A DNA stretch of 64,000 nucleotides from an uncultured Candidatus Saccharibacteria bacterium (GTDB lineage: Bacteria > Patescibacteriota > Minisyncoccia > Phycocordibacterales > UBA9973), in contig CAZKJE010000002.1 in the NCBI GenBank assembly GCA_964553015.1, forward strand, positions 14,175-78,174. The letters are read 5' to 3'. Under the pieces are notes generated by a model. That model saw only the letters and a list, made by a program, of their open reading frames with translations, made no database searches and had not been told where the DNA came from. Positions 39,071 through 50,424 of the stretch are shown one piece after another (position 1 is the stretch's first letter; every line of letters begins with the position of its first letter). The position numbers and the translations under genes are program-made.

Positions 39071-39145
39071 TTGATATTAGTAGCAAAATAGACTTATGAA
39101 ACTACAAGAAGGATAATAGCGTAACTAAACCATAAAGTCAATTTG

Positions 39146-39535
39146 TGGAGATGGGGGAAATTGAATCCCCGTGCAGAAGGTTTTTGCAAAGAAGTCTACA
39201 TGCGTAGCGCGCTTTTTGTTTTAAATTAAAAAATTATGAAACGCGCCAAATATTTTTTAACCGAGTTCTTTTGTTTTGCGAGAGCGTCAGAACAGGCGTT
39301 CAAGCTATCCCGATAATGTTATGCCTCGTCTTATATATCGGAAGTCTATAAGAGAGACACCACCTCAGGCTTACGCGAAAGATGGAGCGAAAGCGAGCGC
39401 ATTACCGAAGTAAGGCGAACGCATTGCTGTGAAAGCTGATTTTGCAATTAGCTGTTGAACGAATTTTTACGAGATTACGTTCATTCTCGGCATGCATCAA
39501 TAACAAATGGCCAACTGTCTATGCCTTGCATCCCC
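39146..39535 (-). ncRNA. ssrA: transfer-messenger RNA (tmRNA)
   Basis: 5' end GGGGAUGCAAGG...GCAUGCCGAG...CUCGUAAAAA shares the PK1-region strings with E. coli tmRNA. 3' tRNA-like end with T-arm GGGGA-UUCAAUU-UCCCC and acceptor CAUCUCC-A pairing with the 5' GGGGAUG. Lies next to smpB. Predicted tag ORF is GCA AAA ... GCG UAA. Confidence 0.75.
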
Positions 39536-39546
39536 ATATTTACTTT

Positions 39547-39993
39547 TCAACGTCCTTTAAAATCTCGGCGAATCTCGCGATCAGTGTCACGCTTTTTTAG
39601 AGTTTCGCGTTTATCAAATTTTTTCTTGCCTTTCACCAGGGCAATTTCCAATTTGATTTTCCTGCCTTTATTATACACTGAAATCGGCACTATTGTCAAA
39701 CTTTTATTCTTCTCGCTGCCTTGTAGCTCATTAATTTCTTTTTTGGTCAGCAAAAGTTTCCTATTGCGCAGAGGATCATAATCTTTTGGCGCATTTTTTG
39801 CCTGATATGGAGGTATGTTGGCATTGATCAGGTATGCTTCGCCGCCGCGTATAATTACAAAAGCCCCCTCGAGCGACATCTGACCCGTTCGTACAGCTTT
39901 TACTTCTGTTCCCAAAAGCTCAATACCGGTTTCGTGCTTTTCTAGGAATTCATAATTGAATCGCGCTTTGCGGTTTTCTGTATAACTAGCCAT
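39547..39993 (-). CDS. smpB: SsrA-binding protein SmpB
   Basis: 148 aa, typical SmpB sequence (GIELLGTEVK ... ). Confidence 0.9.
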   Translation of the reverse strand: MASYTENRKARFNYEFLEKHETGIELLGTEVKAVRTGQMSLEGAFVIIRGGEAYLINANIPPYQAKNAPKDYDPLRNRKLLLTKKEINELQGSEKNKSLTIVPISVYNKGRKIKLEIALVKGKKKFDKRETLKKRDTDREIRRDFKGR

Positions 39994-40129
39994 AGCTTTA
40001 TCTTAACATAACTTTTCTTTATTTTATGATGACTATGATTCTATGTGCTTAATTGATAGTAAATTTGACTCAAATTTTCTAAAGTGTATAATCTAGGTAT
40101 TATTTTTATAATTAAATCTTGAAAAAACT

Positions 40130-40642
40130 ATGAAAAATATAGAGAACGCGGGGCGTCTTTCCGAGGAAAAAGCTCAAAAGGAAGCCAAAGCAATTCAAGG
40201 TATGTCAGAGTTTAGGTCTTACGAGGAAGGCTACAAGAATCCAACAGCAGAACATTATGAAAAATCCTCAAAACATTTGGATAATCTAAAAGGGATAAGT
40301 TCTAAAGTTGCAGAGCTTTTTATAGAAGCAGCCGGACTAGGAAAGGATTTGAGAGATGAAATGGGTCCTGAAACACATAGGATATTTGAAATAGCCCAAA
40401 GAGATATTGTCCAACGCCTCAGATTAGAGGGTCTTTTTCTAAGATTGGGTAGTGAAGATCCAGAAGAAGAAAAAGAGAATATGGATTATATTCTTTCCAG
40501 ATGGGACAATGAGATTCGTTCAGATGAACGCATTAAGGATGTTTTCTTAGGGAAAGAGGAATTACTTAATAGGACAATAGAGTTTACTAAAAAGCACACC
40601 TTTCAACTTCTTGCTGGTATTAAGATAGAGATAGGAGAGTAA
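40130..40642 (+). CDS. hypothetical protein
   Basis: 170 aa, charged and helical, no recognisable motif. Confidence 0.55.
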   Translation: MKNIENAGRLSEEKAQKEAKAIQGMSEFRSYEEGYKNPTAEHYEKSSKHLDNLKGISSKVAELFIEAAGLGKDLRDEMGPETHRIFEIAQRDIVQRLRLEGLFLRLGSEDPEEEKENMDYILSRWDNEIRSDERIKDVFLGKEELLNRTIEFTKKHTFQLLAGIKIEIGE

Positions 40643-40716
40643 TATAAAAATTTTATAATTAAATCTCGCTTTTCGGTGTAATGAGACATAACTTTATATT
40701 AACATAGATTTTTATT

Positions 40717-40849
40717 CCCCTCTTGAGGGGTGGCTCGCGTGCAAGACGGGGTGGATAATTTACCTCACCCTGCTGCCCTCTCCTGTAAAGGGGAGGGGAA
40801 AATTCATCCACCTCCCTCCGACCCATGTCGGAGTACTCCTCAAGAGGAG
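40717..40849. repeat. GC-rich hairpin cluster / miniature element related to the CCCT-loop-AGGG family
   Basis: Bounded by CCCCTC-TT-GAGGGG (40717-40730) and CTCCTC-AA-GAGGAG (40836-40849). Internal hairpins include CCCTCTCC-TGTAAAG-GGGAGGG. About 55% GC in AT-rich intergenic DNA. Confidence 0.45.
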
Positions 40850-40926
40850 AATTTTTTACTCATATACTACTCTAATCCTATAAATAAGGGTTTTTTGACT
40901 TTGCTAGCAACAAAGTGTAAAAATGC

Positions 40927-40954
40927 TTGACAAAAAATGTAGATATGCTATGAT
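40927..40954 (+). promoter_or_regulatory. sigma70-like promoter TTGACA-16-TATGAT
   Basis: TTGACA at 40927-40932 and TATGAT at 40949-40954. Confidence 0.5.
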
Positions 40955-40960
40955 ATAAGC

Positions 40961-41250
40961 ATCTCATAGATTTTATTTGATTTAATATGAGGTCAAGAGA
41001 TTGTTTCGTATAGTCTCTTGCATATCCCTAAATCAAATGTAGTTTCTCAAAAACGATTAGCGAATTGAGAGATTTTCGCTAAAAACGCTTGAGAAATGAA
41101 GAGCTGAAATCTCTCTGGGTCTGGAGCGCTCGGGTTACCTTTAGCTCTTTGATCCATCTGTTGGTAAAAACCCGAACATCATCGCCGTCGGTTCGAAACA
41201 ACCCTCGGCACCCCACCCAAAGCTTCGGCCGCGGGTGGGTTTTTATTTTT
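40961..41250 (+). ncRNA. candidate structured ncRNA of unknown class (about 290 nt) with its own promoter and terminator
   Basis: Long imperfect inverted repeat at 40972-41045. Nested stems TTTCTCAA...[GCGAA-TTGAGAGATT-TTCGC]...TTGAGAAA. Terminal GC stem CCCACCC...GGGTGGG followed by TTTTTATTTTT. No ORF with a plausible start. Confidence 0.35.
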
Positions 41251-41301: not shown

Positions 41302-43230
41302 ATGGATTTAAATTTTCTTAACAATAAAACTGGCGACAAAGGGCGAAAGAAACTTCCGAAGCCGACGAAGTTCAGTGGGAATATTTTAGGCGCGATAATT
41401 TTTTTCATGCTCATCACTGCGCTTTACTTGGTGGTAGCAGGAGACCAAAAAACGGTTCCAGAAATTCCAATTTCCGACCTGGCGCAAAGCGTATCTGCGG
41501 GAGAGGTAAAAAATATTTTAGTTTCCGGAGACAAGCTCACCATCACGTACAAAAACGATCAAGTTAAGACATCCAAGAAAGAAGTGGGCTCGGCGCTGTC
41601 GCAGACACTTTTTAATTATGGGGTGCCGCCGGAAGCACTTGCGCAGACAGAAATAGAAATAAAAAACGAAAGTGGATTTGCGTACTGGCTCGTAAATATT
41701 CTGCCGTTTCTTCTGCCGGTAATTTTTATTCTGTTGTTTTTCTGGTATTTATCACGCCAGGTAAAAGGCGCAGGCATGCAGGCGTTTACTTTCGGACAAT
41801 CCAAGGCCCGCATCACAGATCCGAATGATAAAAATAATAAAGTTACTTTCAAAGACGTGGCCGGAGCCAAAGAAGCGAAGGAAGAATTGAAAGAGATTGT
41901 AGACTTTTTGAAAAGTCCGAAAAAATTTCTGGATATTGGCGCAAGGATTCCAAAAGGTGTAATGCTGACAGGAGCCCCGGGTACAGGAAAGACGCTGCTC
42001 GCTCGCGCTGTAGCAGGCGAGGCCTCCGTGCCGTTCTTTCATTTATCCGGCAGCGAATTCGTGGAAATGTTCGTTGGTGTCGGGGCTTCGCGTGTGCGTG
42101 ACCTATTTAAAATGGCTAAAAAAGCTGCACCGGCCATCATATTCGTGGATGAAATAGACGCTATCGGGCGCACGAGAGGGGGAGGCTTTGGCGGCGGGAA
42201 TGATGAACGCGAGCAAACCTTGAACCAGATTTTGGTGGAGATGGACGGCTTTGAACCGAACGATAAAGTGATAGTCATGGCGGCTACAAACAGGCCGGAC
42301 GTCCTCGATCCGGCGCTCATTCGCCCGGGACGTTTTGATAGAAAAGTAATGATAGATCTTCCGGATCGCGCTGACCGCGAAGAAATTTTAAAAATTCACG
42401 CTGTTAAAAAACCTCTCGCCGAAGATATAAATTTGAAATTAATTGCCGAACGTACACCTGGTTTTTCTGGCGCCGACCTGTATTCGCTCATGAACGAAGG
42501 TGCGATACTCGCCGCACGCGAGAACCGCAAGAAAGTTTTTCAATTTGATCTCATACGCGCGATAGAAAAAGTAATGCTCGGTCCTGAGAGGAAGAGCCAT
42601 TTGCTTTCCAAAAAAGAAAAAGAAATTACTGCGTACCATGAAGCGGGTCATGCGATCGTCGCATCAGTTTTACCTCACGCAGATCCCGTTCATAAAGTTT
42701 CTATCATCTCCCGCGGAAACGCCGGAGGATACACTTTGAAGCTTCCGCTTGAAGAAAGGCGATTGCAATCTAAAAAAGAATTTATAGATGACATTGCGAT
42801 GTCGCTCGGAGGATATGTGGCCGAGCAGATGATGTTCGGAGATATCACGACTGGTCCGTCAAGCGATTTGCAGGCAGCAACAAACATTGCGCGCGCCATG
42901 GTGACGCGCTGGGGCATGTCGGACATTATCGGACCGATAGCCTTGAACGATTCTCCCGGCCGTTCTATGTATGGAGGAGAAACAGTAGAAAAAGAATTTT
43001 CCGAAAGTGTTTCTACTAAAGTAGATGCTGAAGTTTCAAGAATAATTAGTGATGGGCTAAAGTCTGCGCAAATCGTAATTACCGAAAACAAAAAAGCCTT
43101 TGAGGCTATAGCACAAAAACTCATAGAAGTTGAAACCATAGAACAGGAGGAATATGAAAAAATTCTCATAGCGCACGGAATTATCTTAAAAAAGAAAGAA
43201 GTCATAGCTCCACCGGAAGGTACAAAGTAA
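41302..43230 (+). CDS. ftsH: ATP-dependent zinc metalloprotease FtsH
   Basis: Start refined to MDLNFLNNK. Two TM helices, AAA+ module (GPPGTGKT) and HEAGH zinc motif. Extended -10 TGCTATTAT lies 6 nt from the ATG. Confidence 0.9.
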
Positions 43231-43323: not shown

Positions 43324-43998
43324 ATGGCGAGAAAACAAGATAAACAAAGCGTTTTGGCTATGCGCAAGAGAGGAATGAGCTACAGCCAGATCAAAGGGAA
43401 AATAAAAATAAGCAAAAGCACTTTGAGTGTCTGGCTTAAAGATTTACCACTCGATGAAAAACGGATAAGAGAATTAAGAGACAATAGCCCTATTCGTATT
43501 GAAAAATTCAGAAATACAATGCGAGCAAAAAAAGAGATGAGACTTTATGAGGTATATAAAAAAGTCGCAAATGATATTTGTGATCTCTCAAAAAGAGATT
43601 TATTTTTAACAGGCTTGTTCTTATATTGGGGAGAAGGCACGAAATCACAAAATTCTTTAGTTGCCCTCACAAATACAAATCCAGCCATGGTTAAGTTTTT
43701 CATACAATGGCTAAAATTGTTTGGAGTAAAAAGCAAAGATTTGAAAATTAAACTACATTTATACTCCGATATGAAAATTAAAGAAAGTCTTGATTTTTGG
43801 TCAAAAGAGCTTAATATTCCGATAAGCCAGTTTTATAAGCCGTATGTTAAGAAAAATACTCTCAAATCTATCTCGTATAAAAATGGCTTTGGAAAAGGAA
43901 CATGTAGTGTTATATTTGGGAGTAGAGATCTTTGGGAATATATAACAATGGGATTGAAATATATTTCTGAAATTAGTAATGAAAATTTCCGCCCCTAG
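43324..43998 (+). CDS. hypothetical protein with N-terminal helix-turn-helix
   Basis: N-terminus RKRGMSYSQIKGKIKISKSTLSVWLK is HTH-like. The C-terminal 150 aa are unassigned. The stop overlaps the tRNA 5' end. Confidence 0.55.
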   Translation: MARKQDKQSVLAMRKRGMSYSQIKGKIKISKSTLSVWLKDLPLDEKRIRELRDNSPIRIEKFRNTMRAKKEMRLYEVYKKVANDICDLSKRDLFLTGLFLYWGEGTKSQNSLVALTNTNPAMVKFFIQWLKLFGVKSKDLKIKLHLYSDMKIKESLDFWSKELNIPISQFYKPYVKKNTLKSISYKNGFGKGTCSVIFGSRDLWEYITMGLKYISEISNENFRP

Positions 43999-44061
43999 CT
44001 CAGTTGGTAGAGCAATCCGCTTATACCGGATCGGTCCTTGGTTCGAGTCCAAGGGGGCGGA
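43989..44061 (+). tRNA. tRNA-Ile with anticodon UAU
   Basis: 73-nt cloverleaf. Acceptor CCGCCCC/GGGGCGG, D-arm GCTC-AGTTGGTA-GAGC, anticodon arm ATCCG-CTTATAC-CGGAT with U33 and A37, variable loop CGGTC, T-arm CTTGG-TTCGAGT-CCAAG, discriminator A. CCA is not encoded. Confidence 0.75.
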
Positions 44062-44063
44062 CA

Positions 44064-47749: not shown

Positions 47750-49957
47750 TTACTCGAAGTGAAACTCTCCGGCTTTGGTGCGGACTTTTTGTTTTAGGAG
47801 AGGATATTTACTTAGTTCGGGGTCAGATTCTATCATGCTAATAGCTTCAGTTCTAGCCGCTTCTACCATTTTTATATTTTTTATAGCTTCCATGCCGAGA
47901 TCAGTGATGCCCCACTGCTTTGTACCGCCAAGCTCTCCGGCGCCTCGGAGTGTGAGATCTAGCTCTGCCAATTCAAAACCATTTTTTGCAGTCTTGAGCG
48001 CTTTAAGGCGGTCTACGGTTTTTGCGCTTTTGGCTTCAGCAAAAATATAACAATATGCCTGATGCGAACTTCGGATCACCCGTCCGCGGAGCTGATGCAA
48101 TTGGGCCAATCCAAAACGCTCCGCACCTTCTATGATAATTATTGTCGCATTTGGAACATTCACTCCGACTTCTACCACGGACGTAGCGCATAAGATATGT
48201 ATCTTGCCTTCGGTAAATTCCTGCATTACCTCTTCTTTTTTTTCTCTGCTCATCTTGGAATGAAGTACGCCTATTTCATACTCTTTGAACACTCGCTCTT
48301 TTAATATTTTAGCTTCAGCTACGGCAGATTTTACATTTAAAGCCATTTCTTTTTCAGGATCAGGCTCAAAAATTCGCGGGCAGATGACGTAGAGCTGTCT
48401 ACCGGCCTCCAATTCTTTTCTGATTGCTTCGTAAGTGTTAGTCCTCTTGTCCGGAGTAATAATCTCTGTAATTATTTGTTTTCTTCCTACCGGCATTTCG
48501 TCTAAAAGCGACAGATCCAAATCTCCGTATATCGTGAGCGCGAGCGTGCGGGGGATAGGAGTTGCGGTCATGGATAGCAGGTGCGGAGCGATGTTATCTT
48601 TGCGCACTAACTTTCTTCTTTGTGCTGTGCCGAAGCGATGCTGTTCGTCTATCACCACAAGTGCAAGATTTTTAAATTTAACAGTTTTTTGAATGAGCGC
48701 ATGTGTACCGATAAGTATAGGTATCTCGCCGTTTCCGATCCATTTCAAAAGTTGTGCTCGGGAAATTGTTGTCCAGCTTGCCCCGTCCTTGGCGGGACCG
48801 ATTGTTTTTGATGGAAATTTTCTGCAGCCACTTCCAGTGATCAAGCCTATGTTTATCGGCAAATGCTTGAAATATTCTATGAAAGATTCAAAATGTTGCG
48901 TTGCTAATATTTCTGTCGGCGCCATGTATGCCACTTGCAAATTACCAAAATTTTGTGGTTTACCCTGGGTGTAATCGAAGGGCCTTTGCTGTACTGTCAC
49001 ATAGCTTGCAGTCGCAGCTACAGCAGTTTTACCGGAGCCGACATCGCCTTCGAGTAATCGCGACATCGGAAAATTCTTTGCCAGATCAGCAAGTATCGTT
49101 GCGATGGATTTTTCTTGTGATTTTGTCGGTTTAAAAGGGAAGCGCTTCAGAAATTCTTCTGCACTTTTCTTTTCAGGTTTTATTTGAAAAGATTTATTTT
49201 TTCTATATTCAAATTTATCATGCTGGCGTTCCAGCTGAATACAGAATACTTCTTCAAAAGCGAATCGTTTGCGTGCCGACTGCGCATCGGCTTTATTTTT
49301 CGGTTTGTGTATCCAAATAAGCGCGGTTTTCAGAGTAGGCAAATGATATTTTTTTAAAATTTCGGCCGGAATATAATCTTCAATATTATCCAAAGTTTTT
49401 TCTTTAAATATTTTTTCAATTGCGTGGTAAAACCATTTGGAAGTGATACCTCGCGTCTCCGCATAAATTGGATAAGACAGACCCTCCCCCAACCCCTCCC
49501 TTCGCAGGGCGGGGCTTTTAAATAATGTGTCGTGCGAATCTATCGGCATATTCGGCAATTTTTCAAATTCCGGATTAGCAAGATACATGCCATTTTTGCC
49601 TTGCGTGACTTTGCCCGTCAGCTTCACATTTTCGCCGTCATGGATCATTTTTGCCAAGTAAGTCTGATTGAACCATGTGATTTTTATTTTTCCAGATAAA
49701 TCTTCTATTTCGCCTTCGCCCATGGGCATTTTTGAACGAAATCCTTTTTTGGTTTTCAATTTTGAAACTTTGCCATATACAGTAGCCATATCTCCGGCAA
49801 CTAATTCAGCAATATTCTTTACCTCGCTGATATCGCTGTAGCGGACAGGGAAGTGAAACAAGAGATCAGCCACAGAAAAAATCTTGAGCTTATGCAAAGC
49901 CCTTTTCTGGCTTTCATCCAGCCTGAATTTTAGTTCAAGCTTATCGCTTAAATTCAT
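47750..49957 (-). CDS. recG: ATP-dependent DNA helicase RecG
   Basis: Wedge domain plus helicase motifs (GDVGSGKT, DEQHRFG). Start refined to MNLSDKLELKF, since the longer ORF overlaps pilA. Carries an in-frame GC-rich hairpin insert at 49481-49515. Confidence 0.85.
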   Translation of the reverse strand: MNLSDKLELKFRLDESQKRALHKLKIFSVADLLFHFPVRYSDISEVKNIAELVAGDMATVYGKVSKLKTKKGFRSKMPMGEGEIEDLSGKIKITWFNQTYLAKMIHDGENVKLTGKVTQGKNGMYLANPEFEKLPNMPIDSHDTLFKSPALRREGLGEGLSYPIYAETRGITSKWFYHAIEKIFKEKTLDNIEDYIPAEILKKYHLPTLKTALIWIHKPKNKADAQSARKRFAFEEVFCIQLERQHDKFEYRKNKSFQIKPEKKSAEEFLKRFPFKPTKSQEKSIATILADLAKNFPMSRLLEGDVGSGKTAVAATASYVTVQQRPFDYTQGKPQNFGNLQVAYMAPTEILATQHFESFIEYFKHLPINIGLITGSGCRKFPSKTIGPAKDGASWTTISRAQLLKWIGNGEIPILIGTHALIQKTVKFKNLALVVIDEQHRFGTAQRRKLVRKDNIAPHLLSMTATPIPRTLALTIYGDLDLSLLDEMPVGRKQIITEIITPDKRTNTYEAIRKELEAGRQLYVICPRIFEPDPEKEMALNVKSAVAEAKILKERVFKEYEIGVLHSKMSREKKEEVMQEFTEGKIHILCATSVVEVGVNVPNATIIIIEGAERFGLAQLHQLRGRVIRSSHQAYCYIFAEAKSAKTVDRLKALKTAKNGFELAELDLTLRGAGELGGTKQWGITDLGMEAIKNIKMVEAARTEAISMIESDPELSKYPLLKQKVRTKAGEFHFE

Positions 49958-49971
49958 AAAACCATTATACC

Positions 49972-50424
49972 CTATCTGGTCAGTGTAATAGATTGGCCAA
50001 GTTCCGCATTTGGAGCGGCTATAGTGTAGCGGCCATTTGAATCCACTAATACAGTGTATTGCGTGTCTGCCGCTGTTCCCGCAGTCAATCCAGCTCCGCC
50101 GGGGTCCATAGGAATTACTGAAGGAATATATGTAGGTACCAGGCAGCTCAAGTCCATATTCCCTGCGCCGGTTCCAATATTTTCGGCAGTGGAAGTTATG
50201 GTAACGCCGGCACAAGTAAATATACCTTTGTTATCGGCAAGATTTTGCCCGATTGCATTTAAAATAGTCTCGACGTTGCTAATGCGTTGGCTGTTTCTCG
50301 CCTGCGCAAACTGACGAGCGGGATTTATAGCTACTACCACGATAGATGCCAATATCGCGATAATACCGATCACAACTAAAATTTCAATAAGCGTGAAACC
50401 TCTTTTCCTCGCAACTTTTTTCAT
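49972..50424 (-). CDS. pilA: type IV major pilin (PilA-like)
   Basis: Canonical prepilin leader MKKVARKRG followed by FTLIEILVVIGIIAILA. 150 aa. Confidence 0.85.
   Translation of the reverse strand: MKKVARKRGFTLIEILVVIGIIAILASIVVVAINPARQFAQARNSQRISNVETILNAIGQNLADNKGIFTCAGVTITSTAENIGTGAGNMDLSCLVPTYIPSVIPMDPGGAGLTAGTAADTQYTVLVDSNGRYTIAAPNAELGQSITLTR

Follow-up and report, generated by a model that had tools for sequence, protein, structure and literature searches.

Dispersed palindromic repeats in Patescibacteria genomes, probably selfish, and an associated DUF559 nuclease gene

The spacer between smpB and ftsH in a Candidatus Nomurabacteria genome (Patescibacteria) contains a GC-rich palindromic element of 139 nt. 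It lies at positions 40714–40852 (+ strand) of the 64,000-nt stretch that was analysed (assembly GCA_964553015.1, contig CAZKJE010000002.1, positions 14,175 to 78,174; hereafter the window). The best overall explanation, and one that we consider likely, is that the element is an intergenic copy of a dispersed family of selfish palindromic repeats. As judged by sequence comparison, the family is one of GC-rich, palindromic, non-coding repeats of approximately 85–140 bp that are dispersed in Paceibacteria/Nomurabacteria genomes. It has apparently not been described before: a literature search, with most subscription journals outside its reach, found no description of the repeat, nor of the DUF559 genes discussed below in members of the candidate phyla radiation (CPR).

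The 20-mer TACTCCTCAAGAGGAGAATT, from the 3' arm of the repeat, matches at least 120 metagenome stretches. Among the matches listed, the samples bearing it are from groundwater, lake (hypolimnion), peat and sediment, and several contigs have two to three copies; the metagenome contigs carry no taxonomic assignment. A profile search of 1.68 Mb of fetched DNA identified 153 merged copies, up to three per contig. The exact 20-mer is missing from 25 of these, including a form, which we call type B, with a 3' half perfectly complementary to its 5' half. An earlier note, made from the letters of this DNA alone, had advised looking for further copies, and more than 150 occur outside the window; the element is thus not a single-copy sequence without relatives. 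With a covariance model (R1) built from 97 unique family copies, the window element reaches 60.3 bits (E=4e-13) for the + strand and 17.8 bits for the − strand. With this score its membership is not in doubt, and the element almost certainly belongs to the dispersed family. Within the 64-kb window it stands alone: the terminal 14-mer does not recur with up to two mismatches (chance expectation 0.19), and neither repeat and pattern searches nor a scan with R1 found a second copy. BLAST of phage and plasmid collections with the element gave chance matches or none, and two scans of viral contigs with repeat probes gave two chance matches in coding DNA (to TACTCCTCAAGAGGAGAATT) and none, respectively.

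Type A copies are composed of a 5' arm (ATTCCCCTCTTGAGGGGTG), a variable hairpin, GGGGTGGA, a loop, TCCACCTCC, a further variable hairpin and a 3' arm (TACTCCTCAAGAGGAGAAT). Every TACTCCTCAAGAGGAGAATT match listed has the layout ATTCCCCTCTTGAGGGGTGG, P1a hairpin, (A)CGGGGTGGA, variable loop, TCCACCTCCCC, P3 hairpin, GGGTACTCCTCAAGAGGAGAAT. In single-stranded form the repeat folds to a four-way junction. Stems P1, formed by the two arms, and P2 are near-invariant, with 98.7% of cells paired in the 97 copies, and two G.U (G.T) pairs of P1 are fixed in 95 of the 97. Because this is conservation of sequence, it says little about structure. The P1a slot is occupied by 39 distinct sequences, 92% of them with at least three pairs, and the P3 slot by 44, all with at least three pairs; mean minimum free energies are −4.9 and −8.9 kcal/mol, respectively, versus about −2 kcal/mol for shuffled sequences. 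That nearly all of these sequences pair argues that a hairpin is selected in the single-stranded state in both slots. P1a and P3 vary in sequence and keep their pairing; P1 and P2 are conserved without covariation.

Comparison with about 100 related copies places the ends of the window element, ATT and AAT, 3 nt further out on each side than the 133 bp (40717–40849) delimited earlier, whose palindromic termini are nonetheless real. As had been described, the sequences CCCCTCTTGAGGGG (40717–40730) and CTCCTCAAGAGGAG (40836–40849) are both self-complementary, and they are complementary to each other save for two G.T pairs and one C.A mismatch; the terminal inverted repeat is 17 nt long and imperfect. 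The 5' arm ATTCCCCTCTTGAGGGGTG (40714–40732), at least 90% conserved in the 97 copies, is the 5' strand of P1 and itself a 14-bp palindrome. It is followed by the P1a slot GG-CTCGCGTGCAAG-AC (40733–40747), which by comparison with family variants is a decayed form of the commonest one, CTCG-CTTG-CGAG, with one C.A mismatch. The 5' strand of P2, GGGGTGGAT (40748–40756), is near-invariant in the family and pairs with the 3' strand ATCCACCTCC (40806–40815), as placed by the family alignment and the fold. The P2 loop between them holds an extra 38-nt hairpin module, ACCTCACCC-TGCTG-CCCTCTCC-TGTAAAG-GGGAGGG-GA (40762–40799), whose hairpin CCCTCTCC-TGTAAAG-GGGAGGG spans 40776–40797. This and the P3 hairpin CTCCGAC-CCAT-GTCGGAG (40816–40833), a common variant among the 44, are the two inner hairpins that were reported before. 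The 3' arm TACTCCTCAAGAGGAGAAT (40834–40852), the 3' strand of P1, contains the probe 20-mer. Relative to the family, both arms and both P2 strands are exact and P1a has the one mismatch. The GC content of the element is 0.53–0.55 and that of the flanking spacer 0.27–0.29, in line with the earlier estimate of about 55% in AT-rich DNA. A 66-aa open reading frame (ORF) called over the element (40730–40930, + strand) is spurious, as had been suspected; it has no Pfam match and reads one of the stop-free frames kept by the whole repeat family.

The + strand of the window element folds into a multi-branched structure of −67.8 kcal/mol (z=−5.4, equalled by none of 200 shuffles), and the − strand reaches −64.3 kcal/mol (z=−4.2). 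One alternative is a small structured RNA, or a cis-acting RNA, on the + strand, transcribed divergently from smpB and ending at P1 and a U-run. The better fold of the + strand speaks for this, also in the orthologous copy of a related locus, L014 (−52.2 versus −44.8 kcal/mol), as do the retained G.U pairs of P1, the UUCG or CUUG loops that often close the variable hairpins on that strand, and the U-run in both the window and L014. Against it, Rfam has no match at the gathering score, and at E≤10 offers only chance-level miRNA and snoRNA models; a tRNA/tmRNA scan found nothing at the site. There is no conserved promoter, the flanks being unrelated among copies, and 59 of the 70 scorable copies are antisense to the genes around them. 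Wobble pairs in the variable hairpins lean towards the − strand (11 versus 4 on the + strand), not significantly so (p=0.12), and do not reveal which strand folds. The lack of covariation in P1 and P2 and the existence of the perfectly complementary type B form likewise tell against an RNA, a suggestion of the earlier note that we regard as improbable.

We think it likely that the repeat is mobile or selfish in nature. The copies keep constant ends (ATT and AAT) in unrelated flanks, of which the left one is T-rich. In L098 two copies are 100% identical and have different flanks. At orthologous sites the element is present or absent, and the site is empty in most relatives. A search for variable target-site duplications, also advised by the earlier note, found none above permutation expectation for k=1–7 under six boundary definitions (n=102). 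When 5' and 3' arms 0.2–3 kb apart were examined as possible full-length elements, only adjacent separate copies and genes between copies were found. The earlier idea of a unit resembling a miniature inverted-repeat transposable element (MITE) thus holds as far as the related copies, unrelated flanks, empty sites and identical copies are concerned; it fails on target-site duplication and on the gene that shares the ends, which encodes a DUF559 protein and not a DDE transposase.

Copies within and between genes

For coding analysis we used 102 non-redundant full copies, scored as within an ORF if the frame was open for at least 40 codons on both sides, with coding status judged from open frames and Pfam matches. 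By this definition 43 of the 102 copies lie in frame within ORFs, 37 of them antisense and 6 sense. Hosts with Pfam domains on either side of the insert include UvrB, PurN-PurD, PheT, Tgt, RsmA/KsgA, UvrD, TsaD and IF-2. The usual peptide encoded is NSPLEEYP...STPSRKRATPQEGN; in TsaD the 30 inserted residues (218–247) have no counterpart in PDB entry 8iey. Measured as ATT...AATT, 34 of the 43 copies within ORFs have a length divisible by three, versus 19 of the 59 intergenic ones, an excess that follows in part from the definition used and is a matter of consistency rather than proof. Among orthologous RsmA genes, P3 differs by 1 nt and the P2 loop compensates for this, restoring the exit frame, which argues for translation of the insert over its removal. 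From this preservation of frame we infer that the copies within ORFs are translated. Empty sites for the coding insertions were sought in the window and in 80 smpB loci, which contain no orthologues of the host genes.

Another explanation for these copies is an intervening sequence, removed after transcription or translation in the manner of a mini-intron, a bypass element or an intein, leaving the host proteins intact. Such a sequence would account for copies inside the essential genes tsaD, infB, pheT and uvrB, and the very stable fold is compatible with it. Against it, the copies within ORFs are stop-free, the host frame runs across them, and the P2 loop compensates for changes of length in P3, none of which would be needed unless the insert is translated. 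The repeat is also far too small for a group I or II intron and lacks their motifs (no Rfam match). Inteins typically have terminal Cys/Ser/Thr and His-Asn residues, which the peptide NSPLEEYP...TPQEGN lacks, and intergenic copies are equally common. We consider removal very improbable.

Intergenic copies share the orientation bias: between co-oriented genes 22 are antisense and 5 sense. Many begin 2–10 nt from the stop codon of the upstream gene. The possibility that such tightly flanked copies mark split genes was rejected for the two cases checked, of which one lies between rpsO and the downstream gene and the other between rpsL and the gene of a membrane protein.

A nuclease gene that shares the repeat arms

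In three loci (L162, L146 and L091) a DUF559 gene (PF04480) is located between element halves. Read in the direction of the gene, the order is TCCACCCCG–hairpin–CACCCCTCAAGAGGGGAAT, the core of the ORF, and AAATTCCCCTCTTGA|GGGGTG–hairpin–CGGGGTGGA, so that the start region and the stop codon of the gene are encoded by repeat arms. The 5' arm of the window element is identical to the DNA that ends these genes (...AAATTCCCCTCTTGA). The arm–DUF559–arm arrangement was found at four independent genome loci, with further full copies within a few kb, and the L146 ORF has its start within the long P2 loop of a complete type B copy. At E≤1e-10 this DUF559 family numbers 1592 proteins, and those with names are annotated as Paceibacterota, Nomurabacteria or Parcubacteria. 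The arm-encoded peptide HPSRGE occurs near the N-terminus in 93 of the best 120 of these 1592 homologues, and nearly all HPSRGE-bearing homologues inspected end in ...KFPS*, encoded by AAATTCCCCTCTTGA, so that the TGA within the 5' arm serves as the stop codon. This set of homologues was not selected with the 20-mer. Four residues of catalytic type, D83, E94, D96 and H100, are invariant in the protein, and its nearest solved relative by sequence is PDB entry 3hrl (E=2e-12).

Inverted GC-rich hairpin modules also bracket the remaining DUF559 paralogues of the fetched loci; they belong to different sequence families, one per paralogue clade. One of these families (CCTCACCCC..CCCTCTCC-loop-GGAGAGGG) includes the 38-nt module that the window copy has in its P2 loop. 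Modules of the 38-nt type flank a DUF559 gene in both L053 and L086, and like modules are found in the P2 loop of L093, L110, L112, L114, L128, L129 and L198. Two window genes carry in-frame GC-rich hairpin modules similar in style to the 38-nt module and to those that flank DUF559 genes: tig (12722–13810, − strand), at 13250–13315 with the peptide ATPPQTPPQEGGAPSPSGKAGEE, and recG (47750–50215, − strand), at 49480–49515 with the peptide SPALRREGLGEGLS. These are probably the coding-region hairpins of which the element had been suggested to be the ancestral, intergenic form. Full members of the family do occur in frame in genes elsewhere, and to that extent the suggestion was sound; the tig and recG hairpins themselves resemble the separate 38-nt module. 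In L146 (2420–3225) a small ORF downstream of the DUF559 gene has a 5' half-copy of the repeat on one side and a full inverted copy on the other; judged by eye, its product may be a protein of the uracil-DNA-glycosylase type, and genes between repeat copies may be carried along.

The link between repeat and DUF559 gene is an association, if a very consistent one across the sequences compared. DUF559 is the only gene found to share the arms, in fetched loci that were not scanned exhaustively for transposases, and we put its role as the cognate enzyme of the repeat at slightly short of an even chance. We hypothesize that the repeats are non-autonomous selfish DNA, the copying of which would be assisted by the DUF559 nuclease, a Vsr-like enzyme of the PD-(D/E)XK type. 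The target of the nuclease would be either the arms, each a 14-bp self-palindrome, or the stem with G.T pairs that the two arms make together. Repair or recombination, and not a cut-and-paste DDE reaction, would then produce the new copies, a route that fits the absence of variable target-site duplication. Copies that land in ORFs would simply be translated, as in the Rickettsia palindromic elements considered below. That each arm is in itself a palindrome of 14 bp is more than a stem alone would need, and it fits duplex recognition by a dimeric nuclease; that such a nuclease binds the arms, and that the fixed G.T pairs recall the Vsr substrate, is speculation. A broader proposal, which we advance tentatively and with more doubt than the pairing of this gene with this repeat, is that DUF559 nucleases are the missing 'transposase' of a class of bacterial mobile DNA that has so far gone unrecognised. 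A given clade would spread a GC-rich palindromic hairpin family of its own by nicking a folded or mismatched palindrome (with Vsr-like recognition of G.T), which repair would then copy.

Several observations weigh against these proposals. No transposition event has been observed, and variable target-site duplication is absent. The arms face inward in the nuclease unit (L'-ORF-L) and outward in the small element (L-loop-L'), an order that simple internal deletion of the nuclease unit would not yield. The window has a single repeat copy and no DUF559 gene. In 80 smpB loci of species representatives (866 kb) there is one copy only, which makes the abundance of the repeat very uneven between genomes. 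Most copies were found via one conserved 20-mer, which inflates the apparent conservation of the 3' arm. Orthologous genes contribute copies that lack independence, which makes the statistics on frame and orientation optimistic. A doubled-query peptide search of the protein database returned three matches only and is uninformative as a census.

Arms as highly conserved as these could just as well reflect a function at the level of the host. In orthologous host genes the 120-nt flanks are 57–84% identical and the arms 95–100% identical, a figure that is biased by the 20-mer search for the 3' arm and unbiased for the 5' arm. On this alternative the repeat benefits its host and is kept by selection at each site: the arms would bind a host protein, or the fold would stabilise mRNA 3' ends or insulate genes, as has been proposed for the REP/BIME sequences of enterobacteria. 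Arms that stay intact while flanks drift are what such selection would leave, and the closeness of many intergenic copies to an upstream stop codon, the orientation bias both within ORFs and between co-oriented genes, and the stem and T-run of the window copy also agree with it. However, a role in 3' untranslated regions or as an insulator leaves the 43 in-frame copies in essential genes unexplained, as it does the patchy presence among close relatives and the building of the arms into a nuclease gene, and the T-run is not a feature of the family. We judge host benefit unlikely, although less so than an RNA or an intervening sequence, and retain selfish spread as the preferred explanation.

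Selfish repeats of this kind would add a second, independent case to the selfish DNA of the Rickettsia type that resides within genes, here with a candidate partner enzyme. The genomes of Patescibacteria are among the smallest and most streamlined of bacteria, and yet the repeat adds 27–36 residues to proteins such as IF-2, PheT, TsaD and UvrB, which is tolerated. If the DUF559 link is true, it would give a role to a very common domain of unknown function and provide a non-HUH, non-DDE route for the spreading of palindromic repeats. It would also be a warning for the annotation of CPR genomes, in which spurious small ORFs, odd low-complexity protein inserts and assembly breaks may be expected. 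If DUF559 proteins do act as transposases, this would explain the hairpin peptides in Patescibacteria proteins, and perhaps the wide distribution of DUF559 genes in bacteria. The near-invariant arms are a simple probe for these elements.

The smpB–ftsH locus

The host assignment to Candidatus Nomurabacteria agrees with the window SmpB, which is up to 92% identical to proteins of named metagenome-assembled genomes. The locus begins with a tmRNA gene (39143–39535, − strand; Rfam, 119.6 bits), which ARAGORN missed, and smpB (39547–39993, − strand), followed by an orphan ORF of 170 aa (40130–40642, + strand) and the element. Between the element and ftsH, which starts at 41302, are a strong promoter (40927–40954) and a GC-rich segment that ends in a terminator-like hairpin and T-run at about 41245. 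In 26 related Nomurabacteria loci smpB and ftsH are divergent neighbours 50–93 nt apart, without the element, and among the smpB loci compared only the window and L014 have the element in this spacer. The L014 copy lies 27 nt upstream of the smpB ATG and is 102 nt long (CCC...GAG, L014:5872–5973). Its arms and P2 stem are as in the window; its P3 differs (CCCTGAGG-CAAGA-CCTCAGGG), and exactly 38 nt of the P2 loop are missing, leaving the 38-nt module of the window copy without a counterpart. A copy would thus have inserted into the smpB–ftsH spacer, and its P2 loop would later have gained a module from a second family of hairpins.

Directly upstream of the 133 bp first delimited, positions 40652–40716 (− strand) are a decayed duplicate of the smpB 5' end and promoter, recognised by local alignment with 39949–40019 (with a 7-nt deletion) and, by BLAST, also matching the smpB starts of many relatives. 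It follows that the element was originally 27 nt upstream of smpB, as in L014, and that the segment with the 170-aa ORF was inserted later between smpB and the element. The two stretches form a direct repeat of approximately 70 nt (approximately 80% identical) that brackets this segment, which looks like a gene insertion with a duplicated smpB start. The sole homologue found for the 170-aa ORF (57% identity) is in another organism, beside adk and map and without the element; exact look-ups of the 170-aa protein and of SmpB found no identical protein on record.

A terminator scan identified a T-run after P1 (40852–40857) which, together with the stem, has a terminator-like shape downstream of the 170-aa ORF. 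A GC-rich stem followed by a U-run, the layout of an intrinsic terminator, occurs at the window and L014 copies and is not family-wide, the flank beyond AAT being variable; it is at most a local by-product of the copy. At most, the P1 stem and T-run of the window copy probably serve as a terminator for the upstream ORF, and no function is evident at this locus beyond that possible one.

Several other features of the region were observed. In most Nomurabacteria the start codons of smpB and ftsH are each preceded, at a distance of about 6 nt, by a box in the spacer that resembles an extended −10 element (TGnTAnnAT; e.g. L008, L009, L013, L015 and L022); these back-to-back boxes suggest that the two mRNAs may be leaderless. 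Window positions 40927–41245 (L014:5590–5800, − strand) comprise a near-consensus promoter (TTGACA-16-TGcTATGAT), 88.6% identical between the window and L014, and, after it, 230–280 nt with a GC-rich structured end and a terminator-like hairpin and T-run just upstream of the ftsH promoter. The segment has no Rfam match and no convincing ORF, and is a candidate small RNA. We considered whether this promoter and putative RNA travel with the element, and rejected the idea because the pair is common only to the window and L014. In L010, L039 and L042 an insert of about 80 nt separates the smpB stop from the tmRNA 5' end, where the window has a gap of 11 nt, and is built of the same hairpin modules (CCTCACCC, CTCCGAC..GTCGGAG and CCCTCTCC..GGAGAGGG). 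Further along the window, at 43989–44062, ARAGORN calls a tRNA-Ile with the anticodon TAT (UAU); most bacteria read AUA via a lysidine-modified CAU tRNA.

Comparison with known systems

Among known systems, the Rickettsia palindromic elements (RPEs) appear closest to the repeat in behaviour and the REPIN-RAYT system closest in organisation. RPEs are approximately 100–150 bp long, have stop-free frames, and are found both between genes and, often, in frame in housekeeping genes, where they are translated as peptide inserts (PMC10969869). In-frame insertion is likewise seen in 43 of the 102 Patescibacteria copies, the window copy itself being intergenic. The Patescibacteria family differs from RPEs in having two near-invariant stems and two freely varying hairpins, an antisense bias, and a nuclease gene that shares its ends; we know of no such partner gene for RPEs. 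The host, Nomurabacteria, belongs to another phylum, and the repeat is not known to resemble RPE consensus sequences or to be related to them. We treat the repeat as an analogue of RPEs and not as a member of that group.

Classical MITEs (Correia/CREE, RUP, ERIC) are small, non-coding, multi-copy elements with terminal inverted repeats that are sometimes fused in frame to ORFs (PMC10969869). The repeat resembles them in its small size, terminal inverted repeats, copy number, unrelated flanks and lack of coding capacity of its own, the ORFs over the element having no family match. Unlike MITEs, it has no variable target-site duplication, and no DDE-transposase parent was seen; each of its arms is palindromic, and the parent-like unit has the arms in a permuted, inward-facing order.

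VSR, DUF559 and DUF2726 form one PD-(D/E)XK clade, which includes the T/G-mismatch nickase Vsr and the homing endonuclease I-Bth0305I (PMC3424549, PMC3239194). The paired type A arms hold two conserved G.T mismatches, the kind of lesion that Vsr nicks, and by this analogy one might imagine mismatch recognition by the DUF559 protein, which is speculation. The DUF559 gene differs in that it is not located in an intron or intein, and its product is known here from sequence alone.

In REP/REPIN-RAYT systems, short palindromic hairpins are dispersed in the genome, inversely oriented repeats flank a nuclease-type gene, and clades of the gene pair with families of the repeat (PMC3116915, PMC3337134). 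The flanked gene in Patescibacteria belongs to DUF559 (PD-(D/E)XK, Vsr-like) and not to the HUH/Y1 (IS200-like) transposases. The repeat is also translated there as part of the gene, and whereas REPINs are extragenic, the Patescibacteria repeats are found in ORFs as well. The likeness lies in the inverted repeats that flank a single nuclease gene, in the pairing of DUF559 clades with different hairpin families, and in the lack of target-site duplication.
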